UHGV virus genome: UHGV-0148165
Strand: one strand, 5' to 3'
DNA length: 64,000 nt
From: a virus
Shown piece by piece: positions 41,924 through 42,707 of the stretch. The notes under the pieces were generated by a model. That model searched no databases. It saw only the letters and a program-made list of their open reading frames with translations, and was not told the origin of the DNA. Both the position numbers and the translations under genes were made by a program. The first letter of the stretch is position 1, and each line of letters starts with the position of its first letter.

Positions 41924-42504
41924 TGATTAAATTGGTATTCGCTTATTCTCCAACTAAAACGGTCGAAGGCTTTAATGAATTAGCATTCGGTTTAGGTGAT
42001 GGTTTACCATGGGGACGAATTAAAAAGGACCTCCAGAATTTTAAAGCTCGTACCGAAGGTACAATTATGATTATGGGTGCTAAAACGTTCCAGTCATTAT
42101 CTACATTACTTCCCGGTCGTAGCCATATTGTGGTGTGTGACCTTGAGCGTGATTATCCTGTAACTAAAGACGGCGATTTAGCACATTTCTATATTACTTG
42201 GGAGCAATATATAACTTACATTTCTGGCGGCGAAATTCAAGTGTCAAGCCCTAATGTACCATTCGAGACTATGCTTGATCAGAATTCCAAAGTAAGTGTA
42301 ATTGGCGGGCCTGCTCTGTTATATGCTGCGTTACCTTATGCGGATGAAGTAGTTGTTTCTCGCATCGTTAAAAGGCATCGTGTTAATTCAACGGTTCAAT
42401 TAGATGCAAGTTTTCTTGATGATATAAGCAAGCGTGAAATGGTTGAAACGCATTGGTATAAAATAGATGAAGTAACAACCCTTACGGAATCAGTATATAA
42501 ATGA
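41923..42504 (+). CDS. frd: dihydrofolate reductase Frd
   Basis: 193 aa, same as T4 Frd; upstream of td. Confidence 0.9.
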
Positions 42505-42707
42505 GCAATAAATTAAAAGTTAAGGATGTTCCTAATGCTATGGCCCTTTTTATTTGTCGGCAGATGCATCAAGGGCCTATGACACCAAAACAATATCTTA
42601 AAGGTGAGCGTTCTTTAGGATTTACTCGCAAAGCAAAACAAATGGTTAAATTAGGATATAAGCCTAACTTTGCCAAATATCCTTCTACATATTCTTGGAT
42701 GAACTAA
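42501..42707 (+). CDS. hypothetical small basic protein (68 aa) between frd and td
   Basis: ATGA overlap with frd stop and TAATG overlap with td start; K/R-rich. Confidence 0.5.

Follow-up and report, generated by a model that had tools for sequence, protein, structure and literature searches.

Our analyses indicate that ORF68, a 68-codon open reading frame wedged between the genes for dihydrofolate reductase (frd) and thymidylate synthase (td), is very probably a genuine, dispensable accessory gene that occupies a polymorphic frd-td slot in T4-like phages. The ORF lies in a 64,000-nt stretch of the UHGV virus genome UHGV-0148165, referred to here as the window (Table 1). An earlier reading made from the sequence alone (the sequence-only reading) had described a basic, K/R-rich ORF of 68 residues whose start overlaps the frd stop (as ATGA) and whose end overlaps the td start (as TAATG). 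Both overlaps are seen in the sequence, and the calculated composition of the product agrees with that description, as there are 13 basic residues (ten lysines and three arginines) against one aspartate and one glutamate, giving a net charge of about +11, a pI of 10.26 and a mass of 7.9 kDa. Alignment of the family to which ORF68 belongs showed conservation of the basic residues K4, K6, R20 and K34, of an LGYxP motif at residues 51–55 and of the aromatic residues in the C-terminal tail.

Table 1. Features of the window at and around the frd-td junction; the codon overlaps of ORF68 were read directly from the sequence.
Feature	Position	Strand	Description
81-aa ORF	41678–41923	+	Acidic product; stop overlaps frd start (TAATG)
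frd	41923–42504	+	Dihydrofolate reductase, 193 aa; TGA stop (42502–42504) overlaps ORF68 ATG
Putative laterally exchanged patch	42499–42762 (right end approximate)	+	ORF68 and first ~55 nt of td
AATGA direct repeat, left copy	42500–42504	+	Bounds 206-nt indel versus T4
ORF68	42501–42707, stop codon included	+	ATG start (42501–42503), 68 codons, TAA stop (42705–42707)
AATGA direct repeat, right copy	42706–42710	+	Bounds 206-nt indel versus T4
td exon 1	42707–43258	+	Thymidylate synthase; ATG (42707–42709) overlaps ORF68 TAA; end coordinate is that of the ORF's in-frame stop and not a mapped exon-intron boundary
td interruption	43259–44268		Position of the T4 td I-TevI intron
245-aa ORF	43387–44124		Annotated homing endonuclease, I-TevI, inside the td intron

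The sequence-only reading also stated that in T4 the frd stop overlaps the td start directly, and the T4 reference (NC_000866) bears this out, with frd at 145109–145690 and the td CDS ending at 145112, an overlap of 4 nt with no gene between. The alignment with T4 that the same reading had proposed showed about 96.5–97% identity on either side of a clean 206-nt indel, ORF68 being absent from the T4 frd-td junction, which was the part of that genome examined. The indel is bounded by AATGA direct repeats, and the loss of one repeat with the intervening DNA yields the T4 junction TATAAATGAAACAA exactly. With respect to the proposal that the operon contains about 200 bp of extra coding sequence, ORF68 is genuine added coding sequence when compared to T4, but it is “extra” only relative to an atypical reference.

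How atypical T4 is became apparent from searches with window positions 42300–42900 as query, which returned 570 records by megablast and 1009 by the more sensitive blastn, with ORF68 held contiguously in 136 records by both methods. Many of the other records match at the flanks only, spanning about 812 nt, and carry a different insert, the 115-residue RB32ORF229c, and genes of this type (PHROG 1928, unknown function) were found in the frd-td slot of 363 phage records. RB32ORF229c itself occupies 1406–1818 of the RB32 segment that was compared with window positions 42501–42706. The RB32 record describes this insert as “flanked by 9 bp repeat”, and we confirmed the repeat as TAAATGAAA, of the empty-site junction. 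An empty junction with the ATGA overlap is present in T4, the Dhakavirus QL01 and the Mosigvirus p000v, and by subtraction in ~70 of ~570 close relatives, an approximate figure since the counts come from separate searches. The frd-td junction is therefore a slot with three alleles, of which the empty T4 state is the minority, reduced one, because most sequenced Tequatroviruses hold some ORF there (363 and 136 records for the two inserts). Accordingly, the textbook frd/td overlap is a minority allele among sequenced relatives, and for that reason T4 is a poor null model for what is “extra” at this locus. The presence or absence of ORF68 also varies within Dhakavirus, as QL01 has the empty ATGA junction and JS98 and EcWhh-1 carry the ORF.

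The two inserts can also reside in the slot together. In Klebsiella phage Marfa and Serratia phage 4S the gene order is frd, PHROG 1928, ORF68 and td, and in Enterobacter phage CIP9 it is frd, two PHROG 1928 paralogs, ORF68 and td. The RB32ORF229c type resembles ORF68 in its absence from T4 and in having, at its two ends, a short direct repeat of the stop/start junction. However, it encodes an unrelated protein of a different PHROG that is not basic in the way that the ORF68 product is, and it has intergenic spacers of its own, unlike the overlapping codons of ORF68. In all eight strabovirus loci obtained from IMG/VR td lies directly downstream of ORF68 (a scan of IMG/VR with a closer alignment added T4-like loci only), and the same adjacency exists in JS98, EcWhh-1, Marfa, CIP9 and 4S, so that by comparison of these loci the ORF68-td adjacency appears to be old within Straboviridae. 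Small non-essential ORFs are found in variable inter-gene regions of T4-like genomes, for example frd.1–frd.3 and nrdA.1/nrdA.2 of T4. ORF68 is like these in its small size, early-region location and variable presence among close relatives, but they lie in loose blocks whereas codon overlaps fix ORF68 within a tightly coupled pair of enzyme genes, and ORF68, unlike them, has a documented near-identical patch in another genus.

The rarity of ORF68 that was implied by the sequence-only reading did not hold. Over 601 nt the window shows 100% identity to Shigella phage SHFML-26 (Tequatrovirus shfml26), in whose RefSeq record the ORF appears as BI057_gp061 (YP_009278959.1, “hypothetical protein”) with a protein identical to that of the window, and over 100 further T4-like genomes also have it annotated. 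By tblastn, 238 phage records contain ORF68, and in 134 of these the amino acid identity is at least 95%. Its product matches PHROG 9550, a family of unknown function, over its full length (hmmscan; residues 1–68 versus 1–68 of the 68-position profile, E = 1.3e-45, 154.5 bits). It is a plain member of that family, which includes the proteins of SHFML-26 and Marfa (YP_009850431.1), and the members in other T4-like phages likewise lie upstream of td; that several further T4-like lineages have the ORF directly before td also speaks against its implied rarity. Neither a function nor a fold has been assigned to the family, and Pfam has no entry for it. When 1.84 billion representatives were searched exhaustively with a profile, 11 clusters were identified, ten of 70–96 residues and one spurious, and those contigs with homologs that were examined look phage-like. 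The spurious cluster, a 1402-residue metagenomic repeat protein whose ~65-residue tandem repeats match a 20-residue stretch of the profile (residues 9–29) six times (E = 7.8e-9), was rejected since it looks like translated satellite DNA matched by chance. No ORF68 paralog was identified in the window by a profile search of all six-frame ORFs, and nothing specific was found in the literature on the frd-td slot, the PHROG identifier or the RB32 insert. Some records label ORF68 as “DUF4858” or “flagellar biosynthesis protein”, labels that were unsupported by our family searches. In the RefSeq record of JS98 (NC_010105) the site is a 202-nt unannotated gap (2501–2707 of the compared segment), and the records of IME339 and Klebsiella phage EI call ORF68 only as a truncated 42-residue version. 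ORF68 is thus already known as a deposited and catalogued hypothetical gene, an ordinary variable-slot gene and not a new kind of feature, as more than 100 sequenced relatives carry it with the annotation “hypothetical protein”.

The length of ORF68 alone is not significant because AT-rich DNA holds many ORFs of such size, with 45 of at least 30 residues counted within 5 kb of this DNA. Pairwise comparisons with homologs from other genera (Nei-Gojobori) gave dN/dS values of 0.08–0.28, including 0.16 for Marfa, 0.19 for CIP9, 0.08 for 4S and 0.12 for JS98, with synonymous sites near saturation in the comparisons to Marfa, CIP9 and 4S. The indels among the homologs are all multiples of three, so that the frame is kept. 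In addition, homologs at 30–45% identity exist in unrelated phages, namely Phapecoctavirus phAPEC8 and three metagenomic phage contigs, in which the protein is retained over its full length at identities as low as about 30%. The homologs outside Straboviridae have different neighbors and strong Shine-Dalgarno sequences of their own (aaggagg, ctggagg, ttgaggtg). Purifying selection and conservation across genera make ORF68 far more than a chance occurrence, and these comparisons argue that it is a genuine protein-coding gene under purifying selection. It is also likely to be dispensable, as it is absent from T4 and interrupted in the Shigella phage sb4, in whose copy (501–707 of the compared segment) codon 54 is a premature stop and several substitutions are scattered. 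The sb4 stop reflects either pseudogenization or a sequencing error. In the same sb4 record td is split into two CDSs.

ORF68 and the start of td differ from their surroundings in their relationship to other genera. When compared to the Dhakavirus JS98, ORF68 of the window is 98.6% identical (three differences in 207 nt), versus 76.6% for the flanking frd and 77.7% for td exon 1, and the island of high identity to JS98 extends from 42499 to about 42762. Against T4, the final 100 nt of frd show no difference, and td has 13 mismatches in its first 95 nt, ten of them within the 48 nt at 42722–42769; at the mismatching td positions the window has the same sequence as JS98. The variant of the td 5' end in the patch encodes QFLIKDIL and is also present in the Dhakaviruses EcWhh-1 and QL01, the latter without ORF68, whereas the ORF68-less Tequatroviruses T4, RB32 and Phaginator encode QDLIKDIF. 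As the variant is common to EcWhh-1 and QL01 and absent from T4, RB32 and Phaginator, the patch can be considered Dhakavirus-type. This favors a Tequatrovirus having received the patch from a Dhakavirus-like donor, a direction that hinges on a single linked marker, the td 5' variant, as found in a handful of genomes.

The edges of the patch are consistent with such a transfer. On the left the edge is sharp, as frd is Tequatrovirus-type through 42498, its last distinguishing position, and with an empty recipient site this would place the left join within the shared AAATGA, at a stop/start microhomology. On the right the edge varies: ORF68 is 100% identical at the nucleotide level in three Tequatroviruses (the window, LF73P3 and UGKSEcP2), and among the three T4-type td sequence resumes at different places, close to nt 15, nt 41 and nt 85 of td. 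Differing switch points of this type are explicable because later homologous recombination would erode the patch. Probably, then, a Dhakavirus-like donor supplied a Tequatrovirus with the ORF68 cassette through a homologous crossover inside td and a left junction at the AAATGA microhomology, and the cassette would subsequently have spread among Tequatroviruses by ordinary homologous recombination.

An alternative history, which we consider unlikely, is that ORF68 was ancestral in Tequatrovirus and that the T4 junction was emptied by deletion between the AATGA repeats, in which case the near-identity with Dhakavirus would reflect a move in the opposite direction, from Tequatrovirus into Dhakavirus, or gene conversion of copies already in place. 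That recombination between these 5-nt repeats regenerates the T4 junction exactly is in its favor, and the empty junctions with genus-specific flanks in three genera fit recurrent precise deletion. Marfa, CIP9 and 4S, although distant phages, likewise have ORF68 next to td with an identical TGGATGRACTAATG junction, which suggests that the linkage is older than Tevenvirinae, and adjacency across such distant genera would also fit a gene that was present anciently and lost repeatedly. However, an ancestral Tequatrovirus gene does not account well for the td variant linked to ORF68 being of Dhakavirus type, present in QL01 without the ORF and absent from the ORF68-less Tequatroviruses examined, and the complete identity of ORF68 among Tequatroviruses with differing flanks points to recent arrival and not to long residence. 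We therefore favor the entry of ORF68 from a Dhakavirus-like donor, in which case the locus would represent a clean natural case of the exchange of a gene cassette between phage genera, with one breakpoint exactly on the stop/start overlap.

No promoter-like or terminator-like site was identified between frd and td, as the scan gave nothing above shuffled expectation, and for that reason ORF68 is placed in the same transcription unit as both genes. A scan of 41500–44700 with Rfam gave no RNA family at the gathering threshold. In the window, ORF68 is preceded by a weak Shine-Dalgarno sequence (acggaa), and its translation would thus depend on coupling. ORF68 keeps the sequence found upstream of td in T4 (…ACGGAATCAGTATATAAATGA), and by inheriting it would take the frd-coupled start. 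All of the family members examined begin with ATGA (ATG AGC or ATG AAA), a start that would enable the gene to dock onto an upstream TGA stop, and the junction between the ORF68 stop and the td start, TGGATGAACTAATG, is conserved in Marfa and 4S. The most economical reading of this arrangement is a termination-reinitiation relay that runs from frd through ORF68 to td, in which ribosomes ending frd would reinitiate on ORF68 and those ending ORF68 would reinitiate on td, coupled to the ORF68 stop via TGGATGAACTAATG. ORF68 would thereby take over the coupling that joins frd directly to td in T4, and its product would be expected early and at levels similar to those of the two enzymes. A breakpoint located on a stop/start overlap can inform ideas on the tolerance of coupled operons for insertions, and the ATGA-bounded insertion could conceivably exemplify a general form of small-gene movement, in which “stop/start-overlap cassettes” enter coupled gene pairs and leave them undisturbed.

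The sequence-only reading had recognized no motif in the protein and had proposed homology searches and structure prediction, which led to the PHROG 9550 membership given above and to an AlphaFold2 model (mean pLDDT 85.2, pTM 0.63, from a 31-sequence alignment). The model has helices at residues 13–24, 29–39 and 43–49 and an ordered aromatic C-terminal tail, and ORF68 is accordingly predicted to form a compact three-helix mini-domain. The lack of a recognizable motif was upheld, as the protein had no match in Pfam or NCBIfam (and none that was consistent across 20 family members), a sequence-profile search of the PDB gave nothing at E-values up to 10, and PADLOC gave no families at E-values up to 1 for either ORF68 or its phAPEC8 homolog. 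The PADLOC result does not bear on a counter-defense role because PADLOC-DB holds defense and not anti-defense proteins. The predicted fold had no significant structural or family match and no PDB neighbor, and a search of BFVD returned only a family member. As it combines a confidently predicted small fold with the absence of a structural neighbor, ORF68 would be a cheap target for a knock-out and host-range screen.

Tentatively, the ORF68 protein most likely acts by binding a polyanionic target. A nucleic acid and an acidic host protein, the latter implying a role in host takeover or counter-defense, are equally plausible as that target, each at somewhat short of an even chance, whereas an accessory role in the dNTP-synthesizing complex is improbable; other functions account for the remainder. 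We infer that the protein is not an enzyme and that ORF68 is not a mobility gene. A homing endonuclease or other self-mobilizing gene was considered and rejected, as no Pfam nuclease motif (GIY-YIG, HNH, LAGLIDADG or similar) was found and 68 residues is below the size of any such domain; the sole endonuclease nearby is the I-TevI in the td intron.

More specific proposals for ORF68 are less probable. It seems rather doubtful that the predicted mini-domain is structurally new and has a specific role, as a counter-defense or host-takeover factor or as a modulator of thymidylate synthase, and is not a neutral passenger. Should it be a counter-defense or takeover factor, its benefit would have driven the recent near-clonal spread across Tequatrovirus and Dhakavirus. 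There is only a slight probability that ORF68 serves thymidylate synthase or the dNTP-synthesizing enzyme complex as a dedicated partner or regulator, a proposal that would explain both its place directly upstream of td and the translational coupling. The strict adjacency to td in several T4-like lineages and in every strabovirus locus from IMG/VR is in keeping with such a partnership, as is the conserved overlap of the ORF68 stop with the td start. However, the homologs in phAPEC8 and the three metagenomic phage contigs are not near td, but lie in blocks of small unannotated genes or, in one case, between a PIF1-type helicase gene and a DnaB-like gene, and T4, QL01, p000v and the 363 RB32-type records run frd and td without ORF68. 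A helix-turn-helix DNA-binding regulator is similarly improbable; no helix-turn-helix sequence family was matched in Pfam or NCBIfam, nor any consistently across the 20 members. By far the least probable alternative is that ORF68 is a chance open frame in untranslated non-coding spacer, for although its Shine-Dalgarno sequence is weak, chance ORFs are frequent in AT-rich DNA and the JS98, IME339 and EI records omit or truncate it, this reading is, as judged by the comparative data, effectively refuted by the low dN/dS values at saturated synonymous sites, the retention of the full-length protein in distant phages with their own ribosome-binding sites and the confident predicted fold.

ORF68 is of little weight for general phage biology, being one more uncharacterized small accessory gene among genomes of a family known for such genes, and the locus is mildly interesting for the combination of a cross-genus patch that has a stop/start breakpoint with a protein that has no structural neighbor.

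Two further features flank the junction. Upstream of frd, the acidic 81-residue ORF is a second ORF that is absent from T4. Its product is identical to that of RB32ORF231c at 79 of 81 residues, and it is annotated as hypothetical in SHFML-26 (BI057_gp063). The gap between frd.1 and frd in T4 is short and non-coding, and the window is about 180 nt longer there. Downstream, td is interrupted by the 245-residue endonuclease ORF at the position of the T4 td intron. Possibly, the large inserted ORF is the reason that this intron gave no Rfam match at the gathering threshold. A link between the td intron and ORF68 was rejected, since JS98, Marfa, CIP9 and UGKSEcP2 have ORF68 together with an intronless td. 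In the window, the td coding sequence resumes near 44270.
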